Shown here piece by piece: positions 14,940 to 61,643 of a DNA stretch of 64,000 nt. The notes under the pieces are model-generated. The model saw only the letters and a program-made list of their open reading frames with translations, made no database searches and was not told the DNA's origin. How positions within the stretch are numbered: the stretch's first letter is position 1; each line of letters opens with the position of its first letter. Where the stretch lies: assembly GCA_963714695.1 (NCBI GenBank), contig CAVQPQ010000003.1, positions 616,866 through 680,865 on the forward strand, written 5' to 3'. The position numbers were made by a program, and so were the translations under genes. The stretch is from an uncultured Verrucomicrobiae bacterium. Its GTDB lineage: Bacteria > Verrucomicrobiota > Verrucomicrobiia > Limisphaerales > UBA11358.

Positions 14940-15375
14940 CGCTTCGGGTGCACCCTGAAATCAGGGATGACGTCCGCCTTCACCATGAACCTCCTGGGAG
15001 CGCCGGCGTCCCGCCGGCCAGTCGGGAGCCGAAAACCGGAATTCGCCGGCGAGACGCCGGCGCTCCCAGGAACTGCGCCCTGAACCGGCGCTGGCACGTA
15101 GCGCCGACTTCCAAGTCTGCTGGATCGCGGGTTTCCAAACCCGCTGCTGGTGCAACGTCTGGTGCCTGCCGACTTGGAAGTCGGCGACCAGCCCCGAAAG
15201 TTTTCGGGGTACACAGGTTTGGAAACCCGCGCTACAAGAGGTTCATGGTGAGGGCGGGCGTAAACACCAACTCCACTGATCCGGAACCATGCAGTCGAGG
15301 CGGCCGAACAACACGCATGGGACAGGCGTCGCGCCTGTCCTGCTGCATCATTCCGGCTGATAGCGTCGAGGAAGC
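14940..15375. repeat. Cluster of REP-like palindromic elements of at least two families
   Basis: Hairpin 14993-15071: cctgggagcgccggcgtc...gacgccggcgctcccagg. A second family (gccgacttccaagtc / gacttggaagtcggc and gggtttccaaaccc / ggtttggaaaccc) follows at 15100-15235. Confidence 0.75.
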
Positions 15376-20703: not shown

Positions 20704-20754
20704 TGGATGGTTGTGAATCCAGCCGCGACCCGGCCCGGAGGTAACGGCGGCCAT

Positions 20755-20840
20755 CCTGGGAGCGCTGGCGTCTCGCCGGCGTGTTTCGTGGCAAAGCATT
20801 TCCCCATCTGCTCGCCGCCGGGACGGCGGCGCTCCCAGGA
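20755..20840. repeat. REP-like hairpin element (cctgggagcgc...gcgctcccagg family)
   Basis: cctgggagcgctggcgtctcgccggc ... gccgggacggcggcgctcccagg forms an inverted repeat. Confidence 0.7.
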
Positions 20841-33984: not shown

Positions 33985-35511
33985 TCACGCCCACAACTGG
34001 CGATCCAGCGAGCGATATTGAATCGCTTCCGATATGTGGTCGCTCAGGATTTTTTCCGAGCCGGCCAGGTCGGCGATCGTACGCGCCACCTTCAAAATCC
34101 GGTCGTAGGCCCGGGCGCTCAAATTCAAATCGGCCATCGCGTGCTTGAGCAGTTCCTTGGTCGCCTCGTCCAACGCGCAGAATTCCTTGAGTTCCTTCGG
34201 ACCCATGATCGCGTTGCAGGTGATTTTCCGCTTGTGCGCAAATCGCGTCTGCTGCCGTTTCCGCGCTTGGACGACGCGCTCGCGGATTTGCGCCGAGGTC
34301 TCGCCCGTGCGGTCGCCGGCGATCTCCCGGAATTTCACCTGCGGCACTTCCACATGCAAATCAATCCGATCCAGCAACGGCCCCGAAATCCGGCCCAGAT
34401 AATTTTGGATTTCGCGCGGCGAACTTTTTGATTCGCCGGGCATTTTGCCGTCCGGTGTCGGGTTCATCGCCGCGACGAGCATGAATTGTGACGGAAAGGT
34501 CATCGTGCCCGCCGCGCGCGAAATCGTCACGCGGCCTTCTTCCAGCGGCTGGCGCATCGTCTCCAGCACGCTGCGTTTGAACTCCGGCAGTTCGTCCAGA
34601 AACAACACGCCGTTGTGCGCCAGCGAAATTTCGCCGGGCGTCGGATTGATGTTGCCGCCGAGCAAACCGGCGTCGCTCGCCGTGTGATGCGGCGTGCGAA
34701 ATGGCCGGCGCGTTACCAGCGCCTGGCCCGGCCCCAGCAAACCAACGATGCTGTGAATCTTCGTGGTTTCGAGCGCTTCGTCCAAAGTCAGCGGCGGCAG
34801 AATCGTCGGCAGCCGCTTGGCGAGCATGGATTTGCCGGTGCCGGGCGGACCGATGAGCAGCGCGTTGTGTCCGCCGGCGGCGGCAATTTCCAGGGCGCGC
34901 TTCACATTCTCCTGGCCTTTGACCTCGGCGAAATCCAAGTCGTCGTCATGCGTTTGATCGAAAATTTTGGCAATGTCCACCTTGGTCGGCGCGATTTTGA
35001 TTTCGCCTTCCAGAAAGCCGGCGGCCTCGCGCAAATTCTGCACCGGGATGACTTGCAAGCCCTCAACGACCGCGGCCTCGGCGGCGTTTTCCGCCGGCAC
35101 GAGCACGCCGATCTTGCCTTCGGCTTTGGCGCGCAGGGCGACGGGCAAAACGCCCTTGCACGGGCGCACCGCGCCGGTCAGCGCGAGTTCGCCCACGATG
35201 ACAAAATTGTCGAGCTGGTCGGTTTCGACTTGTTCGCTGGCGGCCAGCATGCCGACGGCGATGGGCAGATCAAAGCTCGGCCCCTCCTTTTTCACGTCGG
35301 CGGGCGCGAGATTGATGGTGGTGCGCCCCATCGGAAATTTGAAACCGGAATTCGTGAGCGCGGTCGAGACCCGGTCGCGCGATTCCTTCACCGCGGCGTC
35401 CGGCAGGCCGACGATGACGACGATGCTGTCACCAAAACCGCAGTTGACCTCGACTTCAACCGCGTAGGCGTCAATGCCGTTCAAGGCGGCGGAGCAAACC
35501 CTGGTAAGCAT
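33985..35511 (-). CDS. comM: YifB/ComM family Mg-chelatase-like AAA+ ATPase
   Basis: MLTRVCSAALNGIDAYAVEVEV...LLIGPPGTGKSMLA...GVLFLDELPEF. The 106-aa N-terminal extension in the ORF track overlaps the neighbour's conserved leader and is rejected. Confidence 0.9.
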   Translation of the reverse strand: MLTRVCSAALNGIDAYAVEVEVNCGFGDSIVVIVGLPDAAVKESRDRVSTALTNSGFKFPMGRTTINLAPADVKKEGPSFDLPIAVGMLAASEQVETDQLDNFVIVGELALTGAVRPCKGVLPVALRAKAEGKIGVLVPAENAAEAAVVEGLQVIPVQNLREAAGFLEGEIKIAPTKVDIAKIFDQTHDDDLDFAEVKGQENVKRALEIAAAGGHNALLIGPPGTGKSMLAKRLPTILPPLTLDEALETTKIHSIVGLLGPGQALVTRRPFRTPHHTASDAGLLGGNINPTPGEISLAHNGVLFLDELPEFKRSVLETMRQPLEEGRVTISRAAGTMTFPSQFMLVAAMNPTPDGKMPGESKSSPREIQNYLGRISGPLLDRIDLHVEVPQVKFREIAGDRTGETSAQIRERVVQARKRQQTRFAHKRKITCNAIMGPKELKEFCALDEATKELLKHAMADLNLSARAYDRILKVARTIADLAGSEKILSDHISEAIQYRSLDRQLWA

Positions 35512-35827: not shown

Positions 35828-38050
35828 ATGAATCAATTCACGCGCCGGGTTTTGTTTCTCCTGTTTTTTTTATCCGGGTTTTGCAGCCTCGCGTATCAGG
35901 TAGTCTGGACACGCATGGCTTTTGCGTCTTTCGGGATCATTACTCCGGTGCTCTCCGTGGTGCTTTCGGTGTTCATGCTGGGACTGGGGGTGGGTTCATG
36001 GGCGGGTGGGTGCTGGATCTCCGGCTTGGTCCGGAGAACGGGCCGGTCAGCCATCATCTTTTACGCCTTTGCCGAACTGTTGATCGGGGTGGGCGCGTTT
36101 GCGGTTCCGAAGTTGTTCGCCTTGGGCGAGCACACTTTGCTGGCAACCGGTCAGACGGATTCATTCCGTTATCTGTCGCTTTCGGCCCTGGTCCTGACGG
36201 CCGCCATTCTGCCCTGGTGTGTGTGCATGGGCACAACCTTCCCCTTCATGATGGCCTACATCCGGGAGCAGTACCGTGACGACACGCAAAGTTTCAGTTT
36301 TCTTTACCTCGCGAATGTGCTTGGCGCCATGAGCGGGACATTACTGACGGCGGTCGTCTGGGTGGAAATCCTGGGATTCCGCCACACCCTTTGGCTGGCG
36401 GCCGCCAGTAACTTCACCATTGCCACCATCGGCGTCGCTCTGGGCTGGCGGCGGCATCCGGCGGTCGTCCCGCAGGAAAAGGCCGGGCACCCGGCCCCTG
36501 ACACCGGATCGCCACGTTCTCCGATGCTTCCGGGATGGATGATCAAGGTGATTTTGTTTGCAACCGGTTTTGTCGCCATGGCCATGGAGGTGGTTTGGAC
36601 CCGTGCATTCACACCGGTCTTGAAAACCCAGGTGTATTCCTTCGCTCTGATTGTTTTCACCTATTTGGGGGCCACTTTTCTTGGCTCGTTGATGTATCGC
36701 CGGGATCTGCGAAGGCATTGTCCCCGTTCGATTGGGAAATTGATTTCCGCGCTGGCGATCACGGTTTTTCTGCCGGTACTGGCCAACGATTCGCGGCTGG
36801 TGACGGCACATTTCTGGACCAGTTCCATGGATGCAGTCAGCGCGATGATTGTACTGGCCAGCCTTTGCCCTTTTTGCGCTTTGTTGGGTTATTTGACCCC
36901 GGGCCTGATTGATGAGTATGGAGCCGGTCGGCCGAAAAACGCCGGACAGGCCTACGCCATCAATGTCCTGGGCTGCATCCTGGGTCCGCTCTTCGCCTGC
37001 TATGTATTACTTCCCCGCTGTAGCGAGCGTCATGCCTTGATTCTACTCAGCCTGCCGTTTCTGGCGCTGGGCTTCTTTCTTTACCAACCCCGTTTCCAGT
37101 GGCAACGCTGGGGGATGGGATTCGCCACCGGAGCGGTGCTCGTCTGGGCCGCGTTCTTCTCCGAAGATTTTGAAGGGATGCTGTCAAAAAGCGCCAAGCA
37201 CACCGTTATCCGGCGGGATTACACCGCGTCGGTTATTTCCTTCGGCGAAGGCTCGGAGCGGTTTCTGCTGGTCAATGGCATTGGCATGACCCGGTTGACG
37301 CCCATTACCAAGTTCATGGCCCATTTGCCACTGGCTTTTCACAATGGCCGCCCGGAATCGGCTCTGATCATCTGTTTCGGCATGGGCACAACCTATCGCT
37401 CGGCCTTGAGTTGGAAGCTCCAGACCACCGCCGTGGAACTGGTGCCTAGCGTGATGAATGCTTTTGGATTTTATCATCCGGATGCGGCGCGCTTTGTCAA
37501 CGACCCCAACGGACGAATTGTCATTGATGATGGCCGGCGTTATCTCAACCGTATCACCAATAAATTCGACGTCATCGTGGTTGACCCGCCGCCACCGGTT
37601 GAAGCGGCCGGTTCCAGTCTGCTCTTTTCCCGGGAGTTCTGCGTTCTGGCCCGACAACATTTGAAGCCCGGCGGTATTCTTCAATTATGGTATCCCGGTG
37701 GGAACGACAACACCACGGCCGAAGCCGTCGTCCGCGCGGTCCGTGAGTCGTTTCCCTGCATGCGCTGCTTCCCATCAATGGAAGGCGGAGGCCTGCATCT
37801 GCTCGCCTCCTCGGAACCCATCGAGATGCAGACCGCTGCAGCCTTGGCGGCGAACATGCCCGCCGCCGCAAAAACCGATTTGTTAGAGTGGAGCCCTTCC
37901 CCCAATTTGCCAGGTTATTTAAACTTGGTTGTCGCGCACGAAATTCCCATCAAAAATCTCTTAAATTCCAACCCTAAAGTTCAAATCACCGATGACCACC
38001 CCTTCAACGAGTATTATCTGTTACGGCAGTTGGGCCTGGGTTGGCGCTGA
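35828..38050 (+). CDS. Polytopic membrane protein fused to a spermidine-synthase-fold (class I SAM-dependent transferase) domain, tandem copy 1
   Basis: 740 aa. N-terminus FFLSGFCSLAYQVVWTRMAF plus ~12 hydrophobic segments. C-terminal domain ICFGMGTTYRS...FDVIVVDPPPPVEAAGSSLLFSREF...LKPGGILQLW. Confidence 0.85.
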   Translation: MNQFTRRVLFLLFFLSGFCSLAYQVVWTRMAFASFGIITPVLSVVLSVFMLGLGVGSWAGGCWISGLVRRTGRSAIIFYAFAELLIGVGAFAVPKLFALGEHTLLATGQTDSFRYLSLSALVLTAAILPWCVCMGTTFPFMMAYIREQYRDDTQSFSFLYLANVLGAMSGTLLTAVVWVEILGFRHTLWLAAASNFTIATIGVALGWRRHPAVVPQEKAGHPAPDTGSPRSPMLPGWMIKVILFATGFVAMAMEVVWTRAFTPVLKTQVYSFALIVFTYLGATFLGSLMYRRDLRRHCPRSIGKLISALAITVFLPVLANDSRLVTAHFWTSSMDAVSAMIVLASLCPFCALLGYLTPGLIDEYGAGRPKNAGQAYAINVLGCILGPLFACYVLLPRCSERHALILLSLPFLALGFFLYQPRFQWQRWGMGFATGAVLVWAAFFSEDFEGMLSKSAKHTVIRRDYTASVISFGEGSERFLLVNGIGMTRLTPITKFMAHLPLAFHNGRPESALIICFGMGTTYRSALSWKLQTTAVELVPSVMNAFGFYHPDAARFVNDPNGRIVIDDGRRYLNRITNKFDVIVVDPPPPVEAAGSSLLFSREFCVLARQHLKPGGILQLWYPGGNDNTTAEAVVRAVRESFPCMRCFPSMEGGGLHLLASSEPIEMQTAAALAANMPAAAKTDLLEWSPSPNLPGYLNLVVAHEIPIKNLLNSNPKVQITDDHPFNEYYLLRQLGLGWR

Positions 38051-38306
38051 TTCGCTCTTAACCTGAGCCGACAAAACTTAGTTCCGACAGGGATTTGAAT
38101 TGGATGACTCGCCCGCCAGTTCGCCAGGCGCAACTGCGGCACGACTTCACCGAAGCCGATTATGATGTAGCAGCGTTCAGCAGACCGCCGCATCTCTTTT
38201 CCATGTTTTTTCAGATGGCGGCGCTCTGCCGAAAGCCGCTGCATTCCCCGGCCCAAGGTTTTTGAAGCTTGTCCCGGGCGGGCATGACGTGTAGAGGGTA
38301 GGCCGC

Positions 38307-40525
38307 ATGAATCAATTCACGCGCCGGGTTTTGTTTCTCCTGTTTTTTTTATCCGGGTTTTGCAGTCTCGCTTATCAGGTGGTATGGACGCGCATGGCCT
38401 TTGCCTCGTTCGGCATCATCACTCCGGTGCTTTCCGTGGTGTTGTCGGTCTTCATGCTGGGACTGGCCGCCGGTTCCTGGGCGGGCGGGCGATGCATTGT
38501 TTCACTGGTTGAGAAAACCGGGCTTTCGGCGGTCGTCTTTTACGCGGGCGCGGAATTTTTGATCGGACTGGGCGCGTTCGCGGTTCCCAAATTATTTGCC
38601 ATGGGCGAGCACATTTTGCTGGCCGCGGGTCAAACCAATTCCATCGGCTACCTTTCCTTGTCGGCCCTGGTTCTGGCGTTTTCCATTCTGCCCTGGTGCC
38701 TGTTCATGGGGACAACCTTTCCCCTGATGATGGCTTACATCCGGGAGCGGGACTGTAAAAACACGGAAAGTTTCAGCTTTCTCTATCTGGCCAACGTGTT
38801 GGGGGCGATGAGCGGCACGCTTTTGACCGCCGTGGTTCTGGTCGAACTGTTGGGATTCCGCCACACGCTTTGGGTGGCGGCCGCCGGCAATTTCACCATC
38901 ACCTTCATCGGAGGTTGTCTGGGCTGGAAACAACGAGATTTTGCGGCCAGGGGCTTGACGGAGGCGGATAATTCAGCCGGGCCGGGCAACCCGCCCTCCG
39001 CTGGCCCTTCCCGCAGCCGGCTGATCAAATGGATTTTGTTTTCGACGGGTTTTGGCGCAATGGCCATGGAAGTGGTTTGGACGCGCGCGTTCACGCCGGT
39101 TTTGAAAACACAGGTGTATTCCTTTGCCCTGGTCGTCTTTACCTATCTGGGCGCAACGTTTGCCGGCTCGTGGTGGTATCGCCATCATCTCAGAAATAAG
39201 TCACCTTGGCCGGTGGCAACACTGATGGCGCTGCTCGTGATCGCCGTTTTTCTTCCCGTGGCAGTCAACGACCCCAGAATTGTGAACATGGACTGGATGT
39301 TTACCGTCTATGTCGGCAGCGCGATGATGGTGCTGGCGAGCATCGTACCGCTTTGTGCCATCCTGGGGTATTTGACGCCGAGTTTGATTGACGGATATGC
39401 CGGCGGCCAGCCCGGCCTTGCCGGCGAGGCTTATGCCATCAATGTTCTCGGTTGCATTTTGGGGCCGTTGTTCGCCTGCTATGTTCTGTTGCCTTGGATG
39501 GGCGAGTCCTGCGCGCTGATGATTCTCAGCCTGCCTTTTTTGGCGTTTTATTTTCTTGGTTGGAAATCGCTACCCATGGGACAACGCCTGTTTTCGAGTC
39601 TGGCCGCTGGCGCGCTCGCGAGCTATTCATTGTTTTTCCCACACAACTATCAAGATTATGTGTCGAGGCAATCCAGCCGGATGGAAGTGCGGCGGGACTA
39701 TGCCGCCTCGGTCATTTCCGCCCAGGTGGTGGGCGGCAAGGTGCTTTTGGTTAATGGCATCGGCATGACCAAACTGACGCCGATCACCAAATTCATGGTT
39801 CATTTGCCGCTGGCTTTTCATCTAGGAAAACCTGAATCGGCGCTGATCATCTGCTTCGGCATGGGCACCAGCTACCGGTCGGCATTGAGCTGGGACATTG
39901 ATACCACAGCGGTGGAATTGGTGCCCAGCGTGACGAAGGCGTTCGGATTTTACCACACCAACGCGGCGCAAATTCTGGCCAATCCCAAAGGACACGTCGT
40001 GATTGACGACGGGCGGCGTTTTCTTCGACGCACCCGGGAAAAATTTGACGTGATTGTGATTGACCCGCCGCCACCGGTGGAAACTGCCGGGTCCAGCCTC
40101 CTTTTTTCCGCGGAATTTTACGCCCTGGCCAAACAGCATTTGAACCCGCACGGAATTCTCCAGGCTTGGTTCCCCGGGGAGATCGGGTGACCACGCAAGC
40201 CGCCTTGCGCTCCATTCACGACGCGTTCCCCCACGTGCGTTGTTTTCATTCCGTGGAAGGCTGGGGCATGCACATGCTGGCGTCAATGGATCCCGTCGAA
40301 GTGCCGACCCCCGAACAACTCCTGGTGCGCATGCCCGCCAGTGCAAGCAACGACTTGTTGGAATGGTCCGACGCCCGTGATTTGCCTGCGTATGTGGGAC
40401 AGGTGGTTTTGCGCGAGGTCCCCGTTGAAAAAAGCCTCAACCCGGATTCCGCAATTCAAATCACCGATGACCATCCCCTCAACGAATACTTCCTGTTGCG
40501 ACAGAAGGGCCTGTTTGAATACTGA
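38307..40525 (+). pseudogene. Tandem copy 2 of the same family, interrupted by a 1-nt frame change in a C4G4 run (40172-40179)
   Basis: ORF 38307-40190 ends ...ILQAWFPGEIG*. ORF 40166-40525 continues the homology (DRVTTQAALRSIHDAFPHVRCF...) in another frame. Confidence 0.8.
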
Positions 40526-40691
40526 CGTCCCTTCGCTGCCGGCACATCCGGCGCCGGACCTGGCGAGCCGGTGGACAGACTGCAACTCGACGCAAAGCCG
40601 TTCGCGCAGGCATTGTTTGCTGAAAACGACCTGAGTTATTGGAAGGATTGAAGCTTGTATGAACCGATCAACGCGTGTAGTTGTAAACTCC

Positions 40692-42896
40692 ATGAATCAA
40701 TTCACGCGCCGGGTTTTGTTTCTCCTGTTTTTTTTATCCGGGTTTTGCAGTCTCGCTTATCAGGTGGTATGGACGCGCATGGCCTTTGCCTCGTTCGGCA
40801 TCATCACTCCGGTGCTTTCCGTGGTGTTGTCGGTCTTCATGCTGGGACTGGCCGCCGGTTCCTGGGCGGGCGGGCGATGCATTGTTTCACTGGTTGAGAA
40901 AACCGGGCTTTCGGCGGTCGTCTTTTACGCGGGCGCGGAATTTTTGATCGGACTGGGCGCGTTCGCGGTTCCCAAATTATTTGCCATGGGCGAGCACATT
41001 TTGCTGGCCGCGGGTCAAACCAATTCCATCGGCTACCTTTCCTTGTCGGCCCTGGTTCTGGCGTTTTCCATTCTGCCCTGGTGCCTGTTCATGGGGACAA
41101 CCTTTCCCCTGATGATGGCTTACATCCGGGAGCGGGACTGTAAAAACACGGAAAGTTTCAGCTTTCTCTATCTGGCCAACGTGTTGGGGGCGATGAGCGG
41201 CACGCTTTTGACCGCCGTGGTTCTGGTCGAACTGTTGGGATTCCGCCACACGCTTTGGGTGGCGGCCGCCGGCAATTTCACCATCACCTTCATCGGAGGT
41301 TGTCTGGGCTGGAAACAACGAGATTTTGCGGCCAGGGGCTTGACGGAGGCGGATAATTCAGCCGGGCCGGGCAACCCGCCCTCCGCTGGCCCTTCCCGCA
41401 GCCGGCTGATCAAATGGATTTTGTTTTCGACGGGTTTTGGCGCAATGGCCATGGAAGTGGTTTGGACGCGCGCGTTCACGCCGGTTTTGAAAACACAGGT
41501 GTATTCCTTTGCCCTGGTCGTCTTTACCTATCTGGGCGCAACGTTTGCCGGCTCGTGGTGGTATCGCCATCATCTCAGAAATAATCGTCGGCACTCGCTG
41601 GCGGAACTGATTGGCTGGCTGACGGTGGCGGCCTTCCTCCCCGTCCTGGTCAATGATCCCCGATTCGTGAAGGCGAACTGGCTCTATAGCGCCGATCTCA
41701 TCAGTACGGTTATTGTGCTGGCCAGCATTTGCCCGCTCTGCGCGATCCTGGGTTATCTGACTCCGAGCCTGATTGATGAATACTCGGCTGGCCGGCCGGC
41801 TGATGCCGGCGAAGCTTATGCGATCAATGTCCTCGGTTGCATCTTGGGACCGTTGTTCGCATCCTATATTTTGCTGCCTTGGATCAGCGAGCGATATGCG
41901 TTGATCGTCCTCGGCCTGCCTCTGGCGGTGTTTTACATCCTCAGTTGCAAATCACTGTCTTGGCCGAAACGCCTGGGATGGGGGCTTGGCACCCTGGTGG
42001 CACCGGTCCTGGCGCTGTTTTTTTCACGGGATTTTGAAGGCTTGCTGCTGAGTCAGAACAATAACATGGTTGTCCGGCGTGATTACGCCGCTTCCGTCAT
42101 TTCCTTTGGCAAAGGATTGGACAAAAAACTGCTGGTTAACGGCATGGGCATGACCTCCCTGACGCCGATCACCAAATTCATGGTTCATTTGCCGCTGGCT
42201 TTTCATCCAGGAAAACCTGAATCGGCGCTGATCATCTGCTTCGGCATGGGCACCAGCTACCGGTCGGCATTGAGCTGGGACATTGATACCACAGCGGTGG
42301 AATTGGTGCCCAGCGTGACGAAGGCGTTCGGATTTTACCACACCAACGCGGCGCAAATTCTGGCCAATCCCAAAGGACACGTCGTGATTGACGACGGGCG
42401 GCGTTTTCTTCGACGCACCCGGGAAAAATTTGACGTGATTGTGATTGACCCGCCGCCACCAGTTCAGGCTGCGGGTTCCAGCCTGCTCTATTCCAGGGAA
42501 TTTTATGCGTTGGCCAGAGAACATCTCAAGCCCGGCGGCATCCTCCAGATGTGGTTCCCGGTGGGAGAGAACGTGACGGAACAGGCCATCGTTCGTTCCA
42601 TCCACGAGTCGTTCCCTTACGTGCGTTACTTTCCATCCGTAGAAGGCTGGGGCCTTCATATGCTGGCTTCTGGGGAACCCATCGAAACGCTTGACGCAAA
42701 CCAATTGGCAGCGCGAATGCCGGAAGGGGCAAAAACAGACATGATGGAATGGACTTCCGCCCGGGATGTGCCCTATTACATCGGGTTGGTGATATCCCAC
42801 GAAATCCCCCCCCAAAAAATCCTCAACCCCGACCCCGCAATCCACATTACCGACGACCAACCCTTTAACGAATATTATTTGCTTCGAGAGTTGTAA
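40692..42896 (+). CDS. Tandem copy 3 of the same family
   Basis: The start is taken at the conserved MNQFTRRVLF. An upstream ATG at 40659 is an alternative. The first 296 aa are identical to copy 2. Confidence 0.85.
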   Translation: MNQFTRRVLFLLFFLSGFCSLAYQVVWTRMAFASFGIITPVLSVVLSVFMLGLAAGSWAGGRCIVSLVEKTGLSAVVFYAGAEFLIGLGAFAVPKLFAMGEHILLAAGQTNSIGYLSLSALVLAFSILPWCLFMGTTFPLMMAYIRERDCKNTESFSFLYLANVLGAMSGTLLTAVVLVELLGFRHTLWVAAAGNFTITFIGGCLGWKQRDFAARGLTEADNSAGPGNPPSAGPSRSRLIKWILFSTGFGAMAMEVVWTRAFTPVLKTQVYSFALVVFTYLGATFAGSWWYRHHLRNNRRHSLAELIGWLTVAAFLPVLVNDPRFVKANWLYSADLISTVIVLASICPLCAILGYLTPSLIDEYSAGRPADAGEAYAINVLGCILGPLFASYILLPWISERYALIVLGLPLAVFYILSCKSLSWPKRLGWGLGTLVAPVLALFFSRDFEGLLLSQNNNMVVRRDYAASVISFGKGLDKKLLVNGMGMTSLTPITKFMVHLPLAFHPGKPESALIICFGMGTSYRSALSWDIDTTAVELVPSVTKAFGFYHTNAAQILANPKGHVVIDDGRRFLRRTREKFDVIVIDPPPPVQAAGSSLLYSREFYALAREHLKPGGILQMWFPVGENVTEQAIVRSIHESFPYVRYFPSVEGWGLHMLASGEPIETLDANQLAARMPEGAKTDMMEWTSARDVPYYIGLVISHEIPPQKILNPDPAIHITDDQPFNEYYLLREL

Positions 42897-43065
42897 CCGC
42901 TCAAATTCCCCAGGCTGACAACAACGAGGAGGCCGGCCAGAGGGCGCAGGGTTTGCCGCCATTCGCACCGAGTACGGGGTTGGGTGATCTGCATGACAGA
43001 TTGATTCCGGCCCTAGGTTTTTGAAGCTTGTCCCGGGCAGGCATGACGTGTAGAGGGTAAGCCGC

Positions 43066-45285
43066 ATGAACCAATTCATACGACGGGTTTTGTTTTCCCT
43101 GTTTTTTTTGTCCGGTTTTTGCAGCCTCGTCTATCAGGTCGTTTGGACGCGCATGGCCTTTGCCTCGTTCGGGATCATTACTCCGGTTCTGTCCGTGGTG
43201 CTCTCGGTCTTCATGCTGGGACTGGCGGTGGGCTCCTGGGGCGGAGGCCGGTTCATCGCCGTACTGGTGCAAAAGACCGGGATGTCGGCAGCCATCTTTT
43301 ACGCCCTGGCGGAAACGGTGATTGGGGTGGGGGCCTTTGCAGTTCCAAGGCTGTTTACGGCGGGGGAGCATTTTCTGCTGGCGACTGGCCAGACCAATTC
43401 GGTGAGTTATCTGGCCTTTTCAGCACTGGTATTGGCGGCGTCAATATTGCCGTGGTGCGTGTGCATGGGGGCGACGTTTCCGTTGATGATGGCGTACGTG
43501 CGGGAACGGGAGCGCGGGAGCACGGAAAGTTTCAGTTTTTTGTATCTGGCCAATGTGCTGGGGGCGATGAGCGGGACAATAATTACAGCCGTGGTGTTGG
43601 TGGAGTTGTTGGGATTTCGGCACACGTTGTGGCTGGCGGCGGCGGGGAACTTCAGCATTGCGATGATCAGTGGGTGGCTGGGGTGGCGGCTGCGTGGTTC
43701 CATCGCCAGTCTCCCACGGGAGGCGAAAGGTCCTCCGGCGGGAGCGGCTGACCAACGGCGGCCCGGTTTGTCCAGCCGGTGGATCAAATGGATATTGTTT
43801 ACAACGGGATTTGGCGCGATGGCGATGGAGGTGGTTTGGACGCGGGCGTTCACCCCGGTGTTGAAGACGGAGGTGTATTCGTTTGCGATGATCGTGTTCA
43901 CGTATTTGGGGGCGACTTTCTTAGGTTCATGGCGGTATCGGCGCGATCTCAAAAAAAAATCATTGTGGCCGGCGGCCAAGTTGATTGCGCTTTTGACCAT
44001 TGCGGTTTTCCTGCCCATCCTGGCCAGCGACCCCACGTTCGTGAGGATGGACTTGACGGAATCAAAATATGTCACCAGCGCGATCATTGTCCTGGCCAGC
44101 ATCTGTCCGTTTTGTGCCGTTCTGGGTTATCTGACCCCCAGCCTGATTGACGCATACGCCACCGGCTCTCCGGCAGTGGCGGGCCGGGCCTATGCGCTCA
44201 ACGTTCTCGGTTGCATTTTGGGGCCGCTCTTCGCGTCCTATGTTTTGCTGCCGTGGGTGGGCGAGCGATCCGCCATCATTGTGCTCAGCCTGCCCTTTCT
44301 TGGGTTTTATTTACTTTGCGGGAAATCCCTGACTCATCGGTGGCGCTGGGGATTCGGACTGGCGGCCGGCACGACTCTGGCCTGGTCCTGGTTTTGCTCG
44401 GGAGACTTTCAAAGTTTTGTATCGAGCAACGGGAAAGAAACCGTGGTGCGAAGAGACTATGCCGCAGAGGTCATTTCCTGTTATGAAGGGGACGGCAAAC
44501 GTCTTTTGGTCAATGGCATTGGCATGACCGTCTTGACTCCCATCACCAAATTCATGGTTCATTTGCCGCTGGCTTTTCATCAGGGAAAACCGGAATCGGC
44601 CCTGGTTATTTGTTTCGGCATGGGCACTACTTATCGTTCCGCTTTGAGCTGGGATATTGACACCACGGCGGTGGAACTGGTGCCGGGTGTGACGAAGGCT
44701 TTTGGATTTTATCACGCGGATGCGGCACAGGTGCTCAACAATTCCAAGGGCCGCATTGTTGTGGATGACGGGCGGCGCTTTCTGATGCGGACCCGGCAAA
44801 AGTTTGACGTGATTGTCATTGACCCGCCGCCACCGCCGGAAGCGGCGGGTTCCAGCCTGCTCTATTCCAAAGAATTTTATGAGCTCGCCCGGCAACACAT
44901 GAAACCCCACGGGATTCTCCAGGCGTGGTTTCCGCGTGGGGAGGCGGTGACCGTTCAGGCCGTCGTCCGGTCCCTCCAGGATTCATTTCCGTATGTCCGT
45001 TGTTTTCTTTCCGCGGAAAAATGGGGTGTTCATTTGCTGGCTTCCGCGGAGCCAATCGAAATGCTCGAGGCGCAGCAGCTTGCGGCGCGGATGCCCGCCA
45101 AGGCAAAGCAGGATTTGTTGGAATGGGATCCTTCCCAGGAGGTGTCTGCTTACATCGAACGGGTCGTTACCAACGAATATTCCGTCCCCACCATCCTCAA
45201 CCCCAACCTCAAAGTCCAAATTACCGATGACCACCCATTCAATGAATATTTCCTGCTGCGGCGGTCGGGTCTGTATGGGCATTGA
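43066..45285 (+). CDS. Tandem copy 4 of the same family
   Basis: 739 aa: MNQFIRRVLFSLFFLSGFCSLVYQVVWTRMAF...VIVIDPPPPPEAAGSSLLYSKEF. Confidence 0.85.
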   Translation: MNQFIRRVLFSLFFLSGFCSLVYQVVWTRMAFASFGIITPVLSVVLSVFMLGLAVGSWGGGRFIAVLVQKTGMSAAIFYALAETVIGVGAFAVPRLFTAGEHFLLATGQTNSVSYLAFSALVLAASILPWCVCMGATFPLMMAYVRERERGSTESFSFLYLANVLGAMSGTIITAVVLVELLGFRHTLWLAAAGNFSIAMISGWLGWRLRGSIASLPREAKGPPAGAADQRRPGLSSRWIKWILFTTGFGAMAMEVVWTRAFTPVLKTEVYSFAMIVFTYLGATFLGSWRYRRDLKKKSLWPAAKLIALLTIAVFLPILASDPTFVRMDLTESKYVTSAIIVLASICPFCAVLGYLTPSLIDAYATGSPAVAGRAYALNVLGCILGPLFASYVLLPWVGERSAIIVLSLPFLGFYLLCGKSLTHRWRWGFGLAAGTTLAWSWFCSGDFQSFVSSNGKETVVRRDYAAEVISCYEGDGKRLLVNGIGMTVLTPITKFMVHLPLAFHQGKPESALVICFGMGTTYRSALSWDIDTTAVELVPGVTKAFGFYHADAAQVLNNSKGRIVVDDGRRFLMRTRQKFDVIVIDPPPPPEAAGSSLLYSKEFYELARQHMKPHGILQAWFPRGEAVTVQAVVRSLQDSFPYVRCFLSAEKWGVHLLASAEPIEMLEAQQLAARMPAKAKQDLLEWDPSQEVSAYIERVVTNEYSVPTILNPNLKVQITDDHPFNEYFLLRRSGLYGH

Positions 45286-45297
45286 TTCGCATTTGAA

Positions 45298-46548
45298 ATG
45301 GACACGCGCCGAAAATTTCCTTCACCCTTGGACCTGAATCATCTGCGAGCAGCCCTTCGTCTGGCGCAGCGCGGTTATGGCACGACGTCGCCGAATCCGA
45401 TGGTAGGCGCGGTGCTGGTGAGGAACGGCCGAATCATCGGGCGCGGCTGGCACCGGCGCGCAGGCTTGCCGCACGCGGAAATCGAGGCGCTCCGCGACGC
45501 GCAAAAACGCGGCCATCCGGCAAAGGGCGCGACGCTTTACGTGACGCTCGAACCGTGTTGCACGCACGGACGCACGCCGCCTTGCACGGAAGCCCTCGTC
45601 GCGGCAGGAATCAAACGCGTGGTTGTCGGCACAACGGATCCGAATCCAACACATGCCGGCCGGGCTTTCAAAATTTTGCGCCGGGCAGGAATTGAAGTCA
45701 CGCCGCCTGGAAGCGCTGGTGTCCCGCCAGCCAGTCCCTCGATTCGCAACCCGGCAACTCGCCGGCAAGACGCCGGCACCCCCAGGGGGGACACTCTTGC
45801 AGCCGAATGCGAGCGATTGAACGAGGCTTTTAACCATTGGATTGTTCATCGTACACCGTTCGTCACCGTCAAAGCAGCCATGACGCTGGATGGCAAAATC
45901 GCCACGGCCACCGGCGAGTCGAAATGGATTACGGGCGAAAAAGCGCGGGCGCACGGCATGAAATTGCGTCGGGGCAGCGATGCGGTTCTCGTCGGGATCA
46001 ACACGATTTTGGCGGACAACCCGAGCCTTACGGCAAGGACGAAGATGGAAGGTGACAGATGGAAGATGGGCAAACAACTTCGGCGCATCGTTCTGGATTC
46101 GATGGCGCGGACACCGTTGACGGCGAAAGTGGTAAGCGACCAGCACGCGGCGCTGACAACCATCGTCGTGAGTAAATCAGCCCCGAAGAATCACGTTGCC
46201 GCCTTGTCGAAACGCGTAAATGTTGTCATCGCGCCATTGAAACAATCCGCAATCCGCAAATCGCAATCGCAAATTGACTTGCGCTGGCTGCTAAAAAAAT
46301 TGGGCGCGGAAAACGTGACGAGCCTGCTGGTAGAAGGCGGCGGGGAGGTGAACGCTTCGTTTTTGCTCGGCGGTTTCGCGCAGCGTGTGGCGTTTTTCTA
46401 CGCGCCGAAAATTCTGGGCGGACGTGATTCGCGCAAAGCCGTCGCAGGCGAAGGCGCCCGGAGCCTGGCGGAGACGATTCAGCTTCGAGATGTCGAGTGG
46501 AAGCGGCTTGGATCGGATTTGTTGCTCAAGGCGCGGGTCATTCCGTAG
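45298..46548 (+). CDS. ribD: Bifunctional riboflavin biosynthesis protein RibD (deaminase/reductase) carrying a repeat-derived insertion
   Basis: HAEIEAL...TLEPCCTHGRTPPC deaminase motif. TVKAAMTLDGKIA and SLLVEGGGEV reductase motifs. Extra segment PPGSAGVPPASPSIRNPATRRQDAGTPRGD between the domains. Confidence 0.9.
   Translation: MDTRRKFPSPLDLNHLRAALRLAQRGYGTTSPNPMVGAVLVRNGRIIGRGWHRRAGLPHAEIEALRDAQKRGHPAKGATLYVTLEPCCTHGRTPPCTEALVAAGIKRVVVGTTDPNPTHAGRAFKILRRAGIEVTPPGSAGVPPASPSIRNPATRRQDAGTPRGDTLAAECERLNEAFNHWIVHRTPFVTVKAAMTLDGKIATATGESKWITGEKARAHGMKLRRGSDAVLVGINTILADNPSLTARTKMEGDRWKMGKQLRRIVLDSMARTPLTAKVVSDQHAALTTIVVSKSAPKNHVAALSKRVNVVIAPLKQSAIRKSQSQIDLRWLLKKLGAENVTSLLVEGGGEVNASFLLGGFAQRVAFFYAPKILGGRDSRKAVAGEGARSLAETIQLRDVEWKRLGSDLLLKARVIP
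45706..45789. repeat. REP-like hairpin element inside ribD (same family as 14993-15071 and 20755-20840)
   Basis: cctggaagcgctggtgtcccgccagc ... gccggcaagacgccggcacccccagg forms an imperfect inverted repeat. Confidence 0.75.
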
Positions 46549-46615
46549 CGGCACCCCGGCAGAGTGCCGCCATTTTTAAATCAAATTTGCGGCGCCCTTC
46601 CGAGACGCCGCTACG
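46546..46615. repeat. REP-like inverted repeat between ribD and ribE
   Basis: gtagcggcaccccggcagagtgccgcc ... gcggcgcccttccgagacgccgctac. Confidence 0.55.
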
Positions 46616-46663
46616 AAGCAAAGGCGGCTCGACAGGGTCTTGCTTCACCGCTAATTTCCCAAA

Positions 46664-47281
46664 ATGTTCACAGGCATTGTTGAAGAAGCAGGAACCGTTG
46701 AGCGCATCAAGCCCACGGCCAAATCCATTGAACTGACCGTGCGCGCCAACGTCACCGGACGCGGGCTGAAGCTGGGCGGCAGTCTGGCGGTGAATGGCTG
46801 TTGTCTGACGGCGGTAAAAGTTTCTCCACGCGGAAAATTCAAGCTCGCACGATTTGATCTGCTCCAGGAAACGTGGCGGCGCACCAACCTGCAATTCGCC
46901 CAGCCCGGCGCACTCGTGAATCTGGAACGTCCGCTGCGCGCGAATGGTGAGTTCGGAGGGCATTTTGTGACCGGCCATATTGACGGCGTCGGCAAAATCA
47001 TCCGTTGGGAACGCGCCGGCCAGGATCACGTGCTCGACATCGCCGCGTCGCCGGACGTGATGCGTTACATCGTTTTCAAAGGCTCGATCGCGGTGGACGG
47101 CATCAGCCTGACCGTCGCGGGCGCGCAGAAAAATAGCTTTCGCATCTGGATTATCCCGCACACCTACGAAATCACGGCGCTGCGCGAACGAAAAGTCGGC
47201 GACGCGGTGAATTTGGAAGCCGACCTCCTCGGCAAATACACGGAAAAGTTCATCGCGGCGCGCGGCAATGGGCGGCCTTGA
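46664..47281 (+). CDS. ribE: Riboflavin synthase alpha chain
   Basis: MFTGIVEEAGTVERI...LGGSLAVNGCCLTAV...GSIAVDGISLTV duplicated barrel pattern. Confidence 0.9.
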   Translation: MFTGIVEEAGTVERIKPTAKSIELTVRANVTGRGLKLGGSLAVNGCCLTAVKVSPRGKFKLARFDLLQETWRRTNLQFAQPGALVNLERPLRANGEFGGHFVTGHIDGVGKIIRWERAGQDHVLDIAASPDVMRYIVFKGSIAVDGISLTVAGAQKNSFRIWIIPHTYEITALRERKVGDAVNLEADLLGKYTEKFIAARGNGRP

Positions 47282-47913
47282 CGGTAGCGGAGCTTGGTTC
47301 CTGGTTGGAAAAGTTTGTGATACCGGCCGCTTTTGGTAAAGACAGTGCCCAGACGTTTGCGGCGTAGCGGATGTGGCAGCGTGCCGAAGATGACCTCACG
47401 GCTTAAGGCCTGCATCCGCTGCAAGATGTCCTGAGTCTCTTTCCAGTTCACGATGGCCGCCCGCAGTGCTTGATATTGCTTGATATTGCTCTTGGTCGTG
47501 ATTGCCGTTATCGCTATTCTCGCCGCCTTGTTGTTAGGGCACCACTACTCCAGCCTTTCAAATTTGACCGCCTCCACCTGCCCGCACCATCCGCTCGGCG
47601 CCAACAAAGGCCATCACGAGCCAGCCTTGTAAAATGCCATGATACGAACCACAGATTTTCGTGTGCTTCGTACTGCTATCTGTGAAAATTTTGTTTTCTT
47701 GCGCAATTTTTCCAACGCAGAGGCGCGGAGAACGCGGAGTTTCGCAGAGTTTAATTTCCTCCGCGGTTCTCGGCGACCTCCGCATCTCTGCGTTAATGCT
47801 TCCAAGCGTTTGGTTGCGGCCATTGCCGCGCTAAGTATTTCGTAGTTCGTCTCAACCCAATCACCTGCCCAAGTTCAGCTTGGTTTTTCCACGAATTGAG
47901 CTAGATTGACGAT

Positions 47914-48237
47914 ATGAAAACGTTCTTCCTGATTTTGGTCGCGGTCGGATTGCTTGTGGCCGGTTGCGACAAAAGCAAATACGGTTCGGTTCAAGACAAC
48001 AAAAAGGCGTTGGATTACGGGAACACCCTGGTCAACGCAAAAAAAACGGCGGACAAGACGATTGACGTTGCGGCTCTCAACCAGGAAGTGCAACTGTTCT
48101 ATGTGCAGGAAGGACGTTACCCGAAAACGCTCGAGGAATTGACGCCCGGTTACATCTCCAAAATTCCGCCCGCACCCCTCGGTTACAAAATTGATTATGA
48201 CGCGACCAAGGGCGAGGTGAAAGTGGTGAAGCAGTAA
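47914..48237 (+). CDS. Small lipoprotein, hypothetical
   Basis: Lipobox GLLVAGC. 107 aa. Confidence 0.55.
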   Translation: MKTFFLILVAVGLLVAGCDKSKYGSVQDNKKALDYGNTLVNAKKTADKTIDVAALNQEVQLFYVQEGRYPKTLEELTPGYISKIPPAPLGYKIDYDATKGEVKVVKQ

Positions 48238-48242
48238 AAATT

Positions 48243-50561
48243 TTAGAGTGACAGGTAGGTCAGCACCTGCACTTCTTTTTTGAAGACCAGCTCGATGGAG
48301 TTATCCTGGAACCGAAAGTAAACGGGCGCGCGGTCTTGATAATGATCCCACATGATGCGTCCATTTTTCGGATTGATGCGCGCGATGTGGAGGCAGGGTG
48401 GTTTTTGCAATCCTTCCAGCGTGTCGCTCAAGACTTCCGCGTCGGTGGGGTTGGGGTCATACGACTGGACGGTGTAAATATACTTGCCCGACAGGTAGCA
48501 AATATAACCGCCGGGTTTAACGCTCCACAAGATCTTGCCGGTCCGGGGATCAACTTTGAGGAGAACCGCTTCTGTGGATTTTGTTATGTCAATCTGGCGG
48601 GCATATTTGATGTCATCCGGGTTGCCGGTGGTGGTGTTGACATACACCATTCCCTGATCGTCGAAAAACAAGCCCACGACGCCGATGGACGGCAACCGCC
48701 AGCGCGCGTTGCCGGTGGCCAGGTCGTAGGCGCTCAAAACCGCCTGATCAAAAACGTAAAGCAGGTTGCCGTGCTCGACGCACGGGCCGGCGCCGAATTG
48801 CGGTTCGGCTTCGCCAAATCCACGTTGGCCGGCGGAGATGGGGTAAGTGAGTGAGGCTTCCCAAAGTTTTTTGTTCGCCTTGTCGAAGACGATGACGCTT
48901 CTGCCCGCAGCGAGAACATTTACGGTTTTCAACGTGAACAACTGGGGCGGTCCAATCACTTCGCCGGTCCAGTCGGGGGTGCCCGTTGAATCCGGCCGGT
49001 GGAGAGTAACCTGATAACGGCTTTGGTCTTCCGAAACATTGCCGCCGCCGTTGTTGCGTTGCATTTCGTTCAGCATTTCATTGGCGGCCTCCGTTGAATT
49101 GGCAACCGACAGATCGCCGTTGAGCGCGGATTTTTTCGGCGGCGCTTTCATCGCCTCGCGCGTGACGATGTGTTCCTCAAGCAAACGCACCGCGATCTGC
49201 AAATAACCATTTTGGTCGGGAACGAGCGTGAAAGGGGCGTCTGCTCTTCGAGGTTTCCTGGCGTTGGCCGGCCGGGGGCGGCCCGGGTTGTTGTCCTTGA
49301 GTTCGGCCATGATTTGTTGTTCGTGAATCTCGTTGGCAAGCAGCGCCGGCAACGCAATCCGTCCGGGCAAATTCAAATTCTGGGCCTGTTCCGCAAACTT
49401 TTGCGCGTCGGGCGGTTGGCCGGCGGCGGCGCCCGGGGTGGAATTTCCTGAACTTCCGCCGGTGTTTTGCGTGGAAGTAACGGTAACCGCACCCGGATCG
49501 TGAAATTCCTCCGTGTGTTCCGCGCCGTTCGCGAGGCTGATGTGCGTGATGGACGGCGCACCCGCCCCGGTTCCCGGCACCAGCAACTCATCCGGGCGCG
49601 AAACCAGTTCGCCGTGGAATTGCGGCAGCGGGATATCCTGCAAAATCCTGCCGGTGTCCCAATCGTAATGCATGAGCTTGTCCGGCCTGACCACCCAAAT
49701 GTTCTGGCCGGAAACGTGCAGCGACAGCCCGTGTTGAAGCGCGATTTTTGCCCCCCGCTCCTGCGACCCCGGCGGCGGAGCCGGGAAGCCTTCGCCCGAT
49801 TGGTTTTCACGCGCACGCAAATCATTTTCCCATTTGATGACTTCGGCGATCTGGTCCTTGGTGATCAGTTCCAGCGACCAGACGGGCTTTTTCGTTTTCA
49901 GGTCGTAACGCGCCAGGGTGCCGCCGTGCAAAAAAACAATCTGGTCTTTGCCAACCAATTGCGTAGCGCCCGAATACGCGCGGTCGGTATCGTCAAAACG
50001 CGCGGAAAAATGCGGATGCGGCACCGAACCGAACCAAGCATACCAAGTCCAGAAGCCAAGGACCAAAGCCAGGACGGCGCCCAGCGAACTCAAAATCAAT
50101 CCGGCCTTCCGCCAGAACCGCGCTTGCACCCGGAATTTTTGCCCGGCATAAACCGGCGCGGCGACGCCCTGCAATTCAGCCTTGCTCTTGCAAAGCGGCG
50201 AACAAAAGAAGCCGAACAGTTCCAGGCACTGCGGACAGATTGGTTTCCCGCAGATGGCGCATTTTTCCGTCACCCGCGTGTTGCGATGCCTCGAGCAATA
50301 CCCGGAAACGGGCGCGGCTTGCGGCGGTTCCGGCGTTTTCTCCTCACGCGAAATTCTCAGTTGCGAGGCCACTGGCGCGGCGGGTGGCGGCGGCGAAGCG
50401 GTGTTGGGAAATTGTTTCGCGATTTCGTCACGGACCAGCTCGTTGATATAATCCGATGAATCCAGACCGCAGTTCTGGCAGACGAAGCGCATCGGATTCT
50501 GCGCCATTTCCGGAGTGACCTCAAAACTATACTTTGCGCCGCAGGAACATTGGATTTTCAT
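48243..50561 (-). CDS. Zinc-ribbon / single-TM / PQQ-like beta-propeller protein
   Basis: N-terminal MKIQCSCGAKYSF...FVCQNCG and CAICGKPICPQC. TM segment AGLILSSLGAVLALVLGFWTWYAWF. The C-terminal region has repeated ...G.ll(a/v)(y/l)D..TGk..W motifs. Confidence 0.7.
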   Translation of the reverse strand: MKIQCSCGAKYSFEVTPEMAQNPMRFVCQNCGLDSSDYINELVRDEIAKQFPNTASPPPPAAPVASQLRISREEKTPEPPQAAPVSGYCSRHRNTRVTEKCAICGKPICPQCLELFGFFCSPLCKSKAELQGVAAPVYAGQKFRVQARFWRKAGLILSSLGAVLALVLGFWTWYAWFGSVPHPHFSARFDDTDRAYSGATQLVGKDQIVFLHGGTLARYDLKTKKPVWSLELITKDQIAEVIKWENDLRARENQSGEGFPAPPPGSQERGAKIALQHGLSLHVSGQNIWVVRPDKLMHYDWDTGRILQDIPLPQFHGELVSRPDELLVPGTGAGAPSITHISLANGAEHTEEFHDPGAVTVTSTQNTGGSSGNSTPGAAAGQPPDAQKFAEQAQNLNLPGRIALPALLANEIHEQQIMAELKDNNPGRPRPANARKPRRADAPFTLVPDQNGYLQIAVRLLEEHIVTREAMKAPPKKSALNGDLSVANSTEAANEMLNEMQRNNGGGNVSEDQSRYQVTLHRPDSTGTPDWTGEVIGPPQLFTLKTVNVLAAGRSVIVFDKANKKLWEASLTYPISAGQRGFGEAEPQFGAGPCVEHGNLLYVFDQAVLSAYDLATGNARWRLPSIGVVGLFFDDQGMVYVNTTTGNPDDIKYARQIDITKSTEAVLLKVDPRTGKILWSVKPGGYICYLSGKYIYTVQSYDPNPTDAEVLSDTLEGLQKPPCLHIARINPKNGRIMWDHYQDRAPVYFRFQDNSIELVFKKEVQVLTYLSL

Positions 50562-61272: not shown

Positions 61273-61419
61273 TCATAGGCTTTTCCGCTTCTCTTTTCTG
61301 ACCTTTTTGTATGCCTGTTCGCGCCGATCAATCTCTGCTTTCGGCACGGAGACGATTTTCTTTGTGAACTGCCGGAATTTCTCAAACGGTGTTTCGGATG
61401 CTGGATGTTTTTCGGCCAT
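61273..61419 (-). CDS. Possible 48-aa basic protein (not in the ORF track)
   Basis: MAEKHPASETPFEKFRQFTKKIVSVPKAEIDRREQAYKKVRKEKRKSL. No homology claim. Confidence 0.25.
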   Translation of the reverse strand: MAEKHPASETPFEKFRQFTKKIVSVPKAEIDRREQAYKKVRKEKRKSL

Positions 61420-61508
61420 ATTATTTTTTTGCTATTTTAGGGAAACTGGCCGCCAATGCCAACCACATGCTTTTCCCCGCCTTTTTGTTTTTCCCTTGTG
61501 GCTTTGAA

Positions 61509-61643
61509 ATGCCAACCGCCAATCGCTGCATAAAGTCGCGCACACGATTGAAAAGTCCAATCATCCCCGTCTCAAAAGGTGGCAGCAACACCGCTCGCAA
61601 CATCGAACTTCTTTGTGAAACCTGCAGTCGTTCAAAAAGTGCT
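61509..61643 (+). pseudogene. HNH endonuclease remnant
   Basis: SPIIPVSKGGSNTARNIELLCETCSRSK resembles DHIIPxSKGG...N.xLLCxxCNxxK. The catalytic DH is missing, and there is no full-length ORF. Confidence 0.4.

Follow-up and report, generated by a model that had tools for sequence, protein, structure and literature searches.

Palindromic repeats that lie in frame within bacterial genes are already known from Rickettsia and from the verrucomicrobium Opitutus terrae, and they are usually treated as rare, one-off accidents that the host protein tolerates. Here we describe a palindromic element, F1, that is inserted in frame in ribD, the gene for the bifunctional riboflavin deaminase/reductase, of an uncultured Verrucomicrobiae bacterium of the order Limisphaerales; "the window" denotes the whole stretch of 64,000 nucleotides of contig CAVQPQ010000003.1 that was analysed. 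In nearly every relative the same codon-level position of RibD is filled by interchangeable, unrelated repeat families, and a loop of PdxJ behaves alike. What goes beyond the known systems is the re-use of orthologous coding loops by many families, the turnover among these families, and repeat arms that are frozen at silent sites. We consider it probable (roughly 0.7) that a few permissive loops collect tolerated, selfish, coding-compatible repeats, which supersede one another there.

The Rickettsia palindromic elements (RPEs) are in-frame insertions in genes that still seem to function (Ogata et al. 2000, as summarised in PMC3733652). F1 resembles them as a short palindrome in frame in an apparently functional gene, to which it adds a peptide, and in its combination of coding-compatible length and open frames. 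Host phylum and lifestyle are different, and the likeness rests on features rather than on a comparison of sequences; given the different phylum and the GC-rich consensus of F1, homology is unlikely. Neither the occupation of one loop by at least seven families with turnover nor arms frozen at synonymous sites was found for RPEs in the literature searched. The intragenic repetitive extragenic palindromic (REP) sequences with GTAG/CGTC heads are closer and reach their highest number in O. terrae; more than half of these inserts are dimers encoding 20-30 amino acids, and many reside in DNA repair genes (Di Nocera et al. 2013, PMC3733652). They share with F1 the phylum and the dimers of 20-30 amino acids in known genes including UvrD-type helicases, and they further correspond to our families in that there are several per genome, that GTGG head variants exist (compare F4 below), and that gene 3' ends are overlapped. 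F1, in contrast, has neither a GTAG nor a CGTC head. The searched parts of that paper and its supplements contain no mention of ribD or pdxJ and do not describe the re-use of orthologous sites by different families.

REP doublets forming hairpins (REPINs) are likewise inverted REP pairs that form a long hairpin and are non-autonomous, dispersed, and free of target duplications (Bertels and Rainey 2011, PMC3116915; Nunvar et al. 2010, PMC2817692). Unlike REPINs mobilised by a REP-associated tyrosine transposase (RAYT), F1 was not accompanied by a RAYT gene among 20 window open reading frames (ORFs) and the sampled loci, its spacer varies in length and sequence, and ~9% of its young copies lie inside genes. 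Bacterial miniature inverted-repeat transposable elements such as Correia/NEMIS, ERIC, and Nezha (PMC10969869) are also small, have terminal inverted repeats, and can be co-transcribed with or inserted in genes, but F1 shows no target-site duplication, conserved interior, or uniform length.

The F1 element in ribD

The gene and the F1 copies of the window are located as follows.

45298..46548, + strand: ribD, bifunctional riboflavin deaminase/reductase, an intact ORF of 416 amino acids hosting three repeat-derived inserts
45706..45786, + strand: F1 element (inverted pair of REP-like units), 81 bp, in frame, codons P137-R163 (PGSAGVPPASPSIRNPATRRQDAGTPR)
14992..15071, no strand assigned: F1 copy between genes, almost perfect in its arms and equipped with the 'master' loop common in the family, first of a cluster of three palindromes
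20754..20840, no strand assigned: intergenic F1 copy with a different loop, between the genes for a PAS histidine kinase and a response regulator

The palindrome in ribD starts exactly at codon P137 and ends at R163, its arms of ~26 nt (45706-45731 and 45761-45786) enclosing a 29-nt loop (45732-45760), and the net gain over empty ribD alleles, flanks included, is 84 bp or 28 codons. The original prediction of a palindromic element that lies in frame within ribD, leaves the reading frame unbroken, and has two further copies in intergenic DNA was confirmed: the ORF is intact and under purifying selection, with a gene-wide ratio of nonsynonymous to synonymous differences (pN/pS) of ~0.2, and the window contains six matches to the F1 arm motif (two arms in each of three elements) versus 0.57 expected, a count that none of 100 shuffles reached. 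With arms of 27-28 nt that are 86-96% complementary, the intergenic copies each form one long, near-perfect hairpin (folds of -64 to -68 kcal/mol, z -6.6 to -8.2), the individual values being -67.8 kcal/mol and z -8.2 for 14992-15071 and -63.8 kcal/mol and z -6.6 for 20754-20840. The intergenic cluster that begins with the first of these copies extends over 14992-15236, comprises F1 and two other palindromes, and is situated between genes for a hybrid histidine kinase and a response regulator.

Pfam assigns residues 14-112 of the host protein to a deaminase domain of the cytidine-deaminase type (E 1e-21) and residues 187-410 to the RibD_C reductase domain (E 1.3e-50). The zinc motifs HAE and PC..C (H59, A60, E61, C87, and C96) are invariant among homologs, and the protein has what characterises a bifunctional RibD, i.e. 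a zinc deaminase with HAE and PC..C plus RibD_C. It is 100% identical to the RibD annotated in a metagenome-assembled genome (MAG) at NCBI (P0001) and matches Bacillus subtilis RibG (PDB 2b3z) with E = 1.6e-76. The genomes closest to the window are Verrucomicrobiota MAGs, mostly Limisphaerales, of soil and peat origin. The stretch 43000-48500 has no match in Rfam at E <= 1, indicating neither an FMN riboswitch nor another known RNA family in this region. As the source is a MAG, one might suspect an assembly chimera at the repeat, or a ribD pseudogene. We regard this as extremely improbable: 67 independent homolog clusters, drawn from assemblies at JGI, ENA, and NCBI, carry the same insert with an orthologous loop, the k-mers from which assemblers build final contigs are longer than the ~26-nt F1 arms, and the open frame, the invariant catalytic motifs, and the pN/pS ratio argue against a dead gene.

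Distant Verrucomicrobiota orthologs of RibD read GIEV-V(H/S)G(I/V)L-xDEC with nothing in between, and the solved RibD structures have no counterpart of the inserted segment; in the alignment with 2b3z, RibG residues 134 and 136 correspond to residues 135 and 165 of the query. Because both the distant orthologs and the solved structures lack it, the F1 segment is, as judged from these alignments, a lineage-specific insertion, in agreement with the original prediction. The insertion falls within the deaminase domain, in the loop that joins its last β-strand (GIEV) to its last long helix (LAAECERLNEAFNHW). In Acinetobacter baumannii RibD the short helix that was named interdomain linker is located after the last long deaminase helix (PMC3668577). 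F1 is found ~20 residues before this linker helix, and its proposed position between the two domains had to be abandoned. In an AlphaFold2 model based on 69 close homologs a strand is formed by residues 133-135 and a helix by residues 163-185, and the predicted local distance difference test (pLDDT) score is below 50 at residues 139-164. All three inserts have scores below 50, but so do other segments, and with a mean pLDDT of 59 the model is poor overall, so that we took it as weak support only.

The F1 family was characterised by scanning metagenome contigs for perfect F1 arms, which returned at least 120 stretches, and 80 copies were analysed. F1 consists of two inverted units of ~26 nt that are separated by a variable spacer, each unit being composed of a 9-nt head (CCTGGGAGC) and a small hairpin, GCCGGCG-TCY-CGCCGGC (7-bp stem, 3-nt loop); a complete copy has the layout CCTGGGAGCGCCGGCGTC-YCGCCGGC, variable spacer of 20-45 nt, GCCGGCGR-GACGCCGGCGCTCCCAGG. 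Copies are 69-94 bp long and their interiors are mostly unrelated save for the one recurrent 'master' loop; the spacer CAGTCGGGAGCCGAAAACCGGAACTC (78-bp element) recurs in both orientations and resembles that of the ribD copy. Lengths divisible by three were observed in 45 of the 80 copies (p = 2e-5), and the common 78-bp form has zero stop codons in all six frames.

The family appears to be dispersed, with three copies in 64 kb of the window and at least 120 perfect copies in metagenome contigs, and ~91% of the perfect-arm copies analysed are located outside recognisable genes. In the flanks of 73 distinct copies we detected no target-site duplication, direct repeat, conserved dinucleotide, or target motif. 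No RAYT or other transposase gene was identified beside the repeats among 20 window ORFs, for which Pfam returned response regulators, kinases, a DDE_3 fragment, and an HNH ORF, and a crude regular-expression search for HUH/Y motifs over all sampled loci gave no match, a result that is not informative genome-wide. The F1 unit fits the definition of a REP as a short (20-40 bp), GC-rich, imperfect palindrome, and two such units in inverted orientation make up the long hairpin, but F1 has no GTAG/CGTC head. Since no transposase was found and this tag is missing, we call F1 REPIN-like without placing it in those families. We also dismissed an origin from phages, only one IMG/VR contig containing a perfect-arm copy.

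Repeat families in the loops of RibD and PdxJ

The position of F1 in RibD, referred to as site 1, was compared in an alignment of the best 120 RibD homolog clusters (72-100% identity). The peptides at site 1 are translations of different palindromic repeats, which represent at least seven families or composites and are distributed over the clusters as listed.

Site 1, F1: PGSAGVPPAS..RRRDAGAPR, 67 clusters
Site 1, F2: GKGRARHSVRAV..RRAEDCAPYQ, 15 clusters
Site 1, F3: FGVPRSRG..RLKAGLQT, 13 clusters
Site 1, F4: WWGERPREP..GSSGASPHQ, 10 clusters
Site 1, F5, with or without F4: RRHVGALKSGDMSPHSK, 5 clusters
Site 1, F7, with or without F4: KVGSSRRDDRTAQRAVPTK, 3 clusters
Site 1, F6: SPSPGLRPPSPPAGERDGVRG, 1 cluster
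Site 1, F1+F7+F4 hybrid: 1 cluster
Site 1, empty: 5 clusters

The reading frame is kept in every variant. Where F2 and F4 inserts were sampled as DNA they are near-perfect hairpins with folds of -47 to -77 kcal/mol, the F5 insert reaches -42 kcal/mol, and the arms of F2, F3, F4, F6, and F7 are also present outside ribD in the sampled loci.

When the inserts are masked, RibD alleles with other families nest among F1 alleles. Masked identity is 95% between an F7 and an F1 allele (L001 and P0028) and 92% between an F2 and an F1 allele (P0085 and P0062) as well as between an F5+F4 and an F1 allele (P0116 and P0018), as compared to values down to 75% for pairs of F1 alleles. The DNA alignments are mosaic: L001 and L081 are ~97% identical right up to the element and then continue with F7 and F1, respectively, and long stretches of L113 and L203 show 98-100% identity although the two genes diverge at each of the three variable sites, with 15-60 nt of diverged flank on one side of each difference. 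These diverged flanks point to short recombination tracts that move alleles between lineages, and the nesting together with the mosaic alignments led us to reject simple vertical inheritance of each family. The empty alleles may have arisen by precise excision, or they may be retained ancestral alleles that were moved by recombination.

Composites at site 1 include F7+F4, F5+F4, and a truncated F1 to which an F7 end and half of an F4 are joined. In P0017 and P0032 inserts are nested inside an F1 arm. Elements thus land in or beside residents. Collapsed remnants in L004, P0020, and P0080 indicate that inserts can also collapse in frame. Alternatively, a transposition machinery might direct the elements to this exact position or to resident palindromes, with the selection of survivors playing a minor role. 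The common right junction of F2, F4, and F7, CCCYAC|CAA beside the LA(D/N)EC codons, would be in line with such targeting, and so would the clustering of palindromes in intergenic DNA (14992-15236), the fact that some F1 copies interrupt the loop of another palindrome (flanks of L085, L098, L122, and L142), and the documented role of REPs as targets of insertion sequences (PMC1525189). We nevertheless find targeting doubtful, as the 73 independent F1 copies share no flanking motif or duplication, the site itself forms no palindrome when empty, F1 occurs in unrelated genes and at unrelated positions, and no transposase was identified by Pfam in the 20 window ORFs or by motif search over the sampled loci.

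Two further loops of RibD, both in the reductase domain, host repeat-derived inserts that were identified with Tandem Repeats Finder (TRF).

46041..46069, + strand: site 3, degenerate heptamer array GAAGATG, TRF period 7, 4.1 copies, encoding TKMEGDRWKMG in a variable loop of the reductase domain
46243..46272, + strand: site 2, degenerate heptamer array CAATCCG / AATCGCA, TRF 4.4 copies, encoding SAIRKSQSQ in the second variable loop of the reductase domain

The original prediction had noticed a stretch resembling a simple repeat at site 2 and passed over the stretch at site 3. The repeat at site 2 is real, with a 7-nt unit, but it is not a separate curiosity, being one of two loops that host dispersed heptamer families. 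Orthologs carry at site 2 perfect (AATCCGC)4, (AATCGGC)4, (ACTCCGC)4, (CTCGACC)4, or (GTCACCC)4 arrays or a single F2 unit, and at site 3 perfect (GGCAGAT)4, (AGTCCAA)4, (CAATGCC)4, or (GAAGTCG)4 arrays or a palindrome, with a GGTCCAA unit occurring as well. Ten of the 16 perfect heptamer arrays in ~646 kb of sampled Verrucomicrobia DNA lie in ribD genes. Outside ribD the heptamer units form palindrome arms, e.g. (GTCGAGR)n-loop-(CTCGACC)n with folds of -66 and -81 kcal/mol, which is why we assign the arrays to dispersed repeat families. B. subtilis RibG is shorter by 6 and 7 residues at the two heptamer loops, identifying them as length-variable. Small hairpin inserts (e.g. NRPSLGSYGPAG and SDESRARDKSRC) interrupt the arrays at site 3 of L113 and at site 2 of P0055, P0058, and P0119. 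Dispersed heptanucleotide tandem repeats are also found in cyanobacteria as short tandemly repeated repetitive (STRR) sequences. Both are dispersed 7-nt arrays, but here the units also build palindrome arms, are concentrated in two ribD loops within the sampled DNA, and change between orthologs.

A survey of how often F1 lands in coding regions revealed in-frame intragenic copies in 7 of the 80 perfect-arm cases, the host genes being confirmed by Pfam. They encode the following proteins.

F1 hosts: a UvrD/AddA-type helicase-nuclease; a PSCyt/DUF1549/DUF1553 protein; PdxJ (two contigs); a LuxE-like protein; a methyltransferase; RibD

For PdxJ, the protein from one F1 match was aligned to its best 120 homolog clusters (80-100% identity). 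Its loop between HTGAFAEEF and ELQRLISGAKQAH contains some element in 120 of 120 clusters, with ~ten families represented, among them F1 in another frame, an AGKMPALP variant, F4-, F5-, and F7-type elements, a GAPNSDSAR palindrome that is also present in RibD, and a heptamer-armed palindrome. In the helicase gene of L102 (645-4646, - strand) and the methyltransferase gene of L162 (4286-5308, - strand) an F6-type insert (SPSP..GERAGERG / GRGEGEG) lies beside the in-frame F1, which suggests that nests of several repeat families also exist in other genes.

Frozen arms and a possible role of the hairpin

Eight F1-bearing ribD genes were compared by Nei-Gojobori counting, yielding the following proportions of synonymous (pS) and nonsynonymous (pN) differences.

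Whole ribD, variable sites excluded: pS 0.50, pN 0.104
F1 loop: pS 0.47, pN 0.24 (2.3 times the gene-wide pN; pN/pS ~0.5)
F1 arms: pS 0.15 (0.00-0.06 among six of the eight genes), pN 0.08

The loop rates date the F1 copy to the divergence of the genes and show only weak constraint on its peptide. In most lineages the arms, in contrast, match the family consensus even at synonymous sites, and because such sites are included this conservation acts on the DNA and not on the peptide. Mean pairwise protein identity is 0.80 and 0.76 for the two arms, 0.56 for the loop, and 0.81 for the rest of RibD. The arm peptides are thus as conserved as the remaining protein, and the four changes in the left arm of the window copy are all synonymous, two observations that would suit an exaptation of the encoded peptide as a useful flexible segment of RibD. 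Such a role is nonetheless very unlikely, since relatives that are 85-95% identical elsewhere have unrelated peptides from at least seven families, remnants, or nothing at this position, the loop accumulates nonsynonymous changes faster than the gene, selection on a peptide cannot explain conservation at synonymous sites, and residues 139-164 are predicted with low confidence. The original prediction had left the choice between tolerance and exaptation as an interdomain linker; tolerance is what the data favour, whereas exaptation as a linker is not supported, given the exchange of unrelated peptides and the relaxed loop.

The window lineage is an outlier: its arms are no longer constrained, and GC-to-AT transitions are eroding the hairpin. 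Its ribD copy has 8 arm mismatches, all of them transitions, six of seven changes relative to the family consensus are GC-to-AT transitions, and the fold of the sense strand amounts to -43.4 kcal/mol with z -1.9. In the other lineages the frozen arms may result from gene conversion by the many genomic copies or from selection on the hairpin.

Selection on the hairpin could mean that a functional nucleic-acid hairpin is required at this position of the gene or mRNA, with any repeat family supplying the stem, for instance as a translation pause before the last deaminase helix, for mRNA protection, or as a site for DNA binding or topology. It would account for a slot that is almost never empty (115 of 120 RibD and 120 of 120 PdxJ clusters) and for arms that are frozen although the loop shows the age of the copy. 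In L209, moreover, a perfect 26-bp stem is kept via three compensatory base-pair changes, the covariation score being reached by 8 of 500 shuffles; since all three changes occurred in one lineage, a single conversion by a subfamily copy explains them equally well. On the other side, the window copy has lost most of its sense-strand stability while the gene is still constrained, site 1 is empty in five close clusters and in many more distant orthologs, the collapsed remnants persist without a hairpin, and sites 2 and 3 mostly contain direct heptamer arrays that form none. Taken together, we consider a required hairpin unlikely. The broader idea that loops of Limisphaerales enzyme genes (RibD, PdxJ, and probably others) are maintained hairpin slots, in which families compete and the stem is under selection, appears rather improbable; if true, such slots would not be tolerated junk but would give coding sequence a further functional level made of structured DNA or RNA, and might pace translation or control mRNA fate or local DNA topology.

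We therefore favour the accumulation of tolerated repeats in permissive loops, which could have proceeded as follows. One copy of F1, a dispersed, non-autonomous palindromic repeat, entered ribD in an ancestor of a Limisphaerales subclade; it is presumably translated, the enzyme putting up with the extra peptide as an unstructured loop on its surface. The resident insert would then be almost the sole place in the gene where gain or loss of DNA is harmless; later elements would survive only when inserted into or beside the resident, and in-frame deletions would trim the older parts. Homologous recombination would finally move the resulting alleles between lineages. The expected outcome is near-permanent occupancy with turnover of families, and the two heptamer loops of the reductase domain and the PdxJ loop may have been shaped likewise. 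Mobile GC-rich palindromes also colonise coding sequence in yeast mitochondrial genes, where they include the 'byp' elements that are skipped by ribosomes. The ribD insert instead appears to be translated, because all variants keep the frame and substitutions are mostly synonymous, and we rejected translational bypass on these grounds.

Several observations weigh against this scenario. The harmless landing pad is inferred, and the same distribution of inserts would arise if incoming elements were aimed directly at resident palindromes. High occupancy and frozen arms are equally expected from a functional hairpin, and the compensatory changes in L209 fit such a hairpin. F1 starts with CCTGGGAG and so differs from the described REP superfamilies, which are defined by GTAG/CGTC heads (definition in PMC3733652), and, no transposase having been found in the ORFs and loci searched, its mobility is inferred from the dispersed copies. 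The structural placement derives from the AlphaFold model with its low mean score and from the alignment to solved structures. All relatives are metagenome assemblies, and translation of the inserts as well as activity of the enzymes are predicted from sequence.

With these loops an anecdote becomes a measurable system, in which nature has tried out where a protein can take up 20-30 additional residues. One could learn from it how selfish repeats establish and retain 'landing pads' within genes and how fast cassettes are turned over compared to point substitution, and gene conversion and selection could be cleanly told apart as causes of arm conservation. In practical terms, protein lengths are inflated by the inserts, which also give rise to spurious 'hypothetical proteins' and disturb the alignment and phylogeny of Verrucomicrobiota genes.

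Further repeats and neighbouring genes

Another palindromic repeat that had escaped the original prediction directly adjoins the gene.

46544..46615, no strand assigned: palindromic repeat dimer, different from F1, with GTAG...CTAC ends, directly 3' of ribD

The dimer begins within the last ribD codons, the ribD stop codon TAG being part of its GTAG head. GTAG...CTAC ends are shared by F2 and F7, and F4 has GTGG. In related contigs the position of the dimer is taken by other families (L081, L006, and L007) or by nothing (L082, L003, and L005). At 18594-18718 a palindrome with 31-nt arms overlaps the last ~28 codons and the stop codon of a PAS histidine kinase gene (18649-20598, - strand).

The HATPase_c domain of a second PAS histidine kinase (16182-17822, - strand, especially 16420-16455 and 16527-16559) is enlarged by ~30 residues, which are encoded where the DNA contains an 8-nt tandem repeat (TTGGAGTT x 4.5) together with a small palindrome and are probably another repeat-derived in-frame insert. 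A 21-bp tandem repeat at 3830-4031 (9.6 copies, 70% matches) encodes a 7-residue peptide repeat in a LuxR/GerE-type ORF (3505-4083, - strand). A candidate for an in-frame palindrome in a comM/Mg-chelatase-like gene (34927-35007) was discarded as a weak 16-nt inverted repeat in the normal linker, and the ORF has a long N-terminal extension that is spurious.

Directly upstream of ribD, at 35828-45285, four tandem paralogs (66-84% amino acid identity) encode a spermidine-synthase-like membrane protein of ~740 amino acids, and in related contigs a single copy lies upstream of ribD. A fragment of a DDE_3 (IS630-like) transposase gene and a small HNH-endonuclease ORF are located at 59730-60203 and 61389-61865, and in L207 a DDE_3 gene also lies near ribD.

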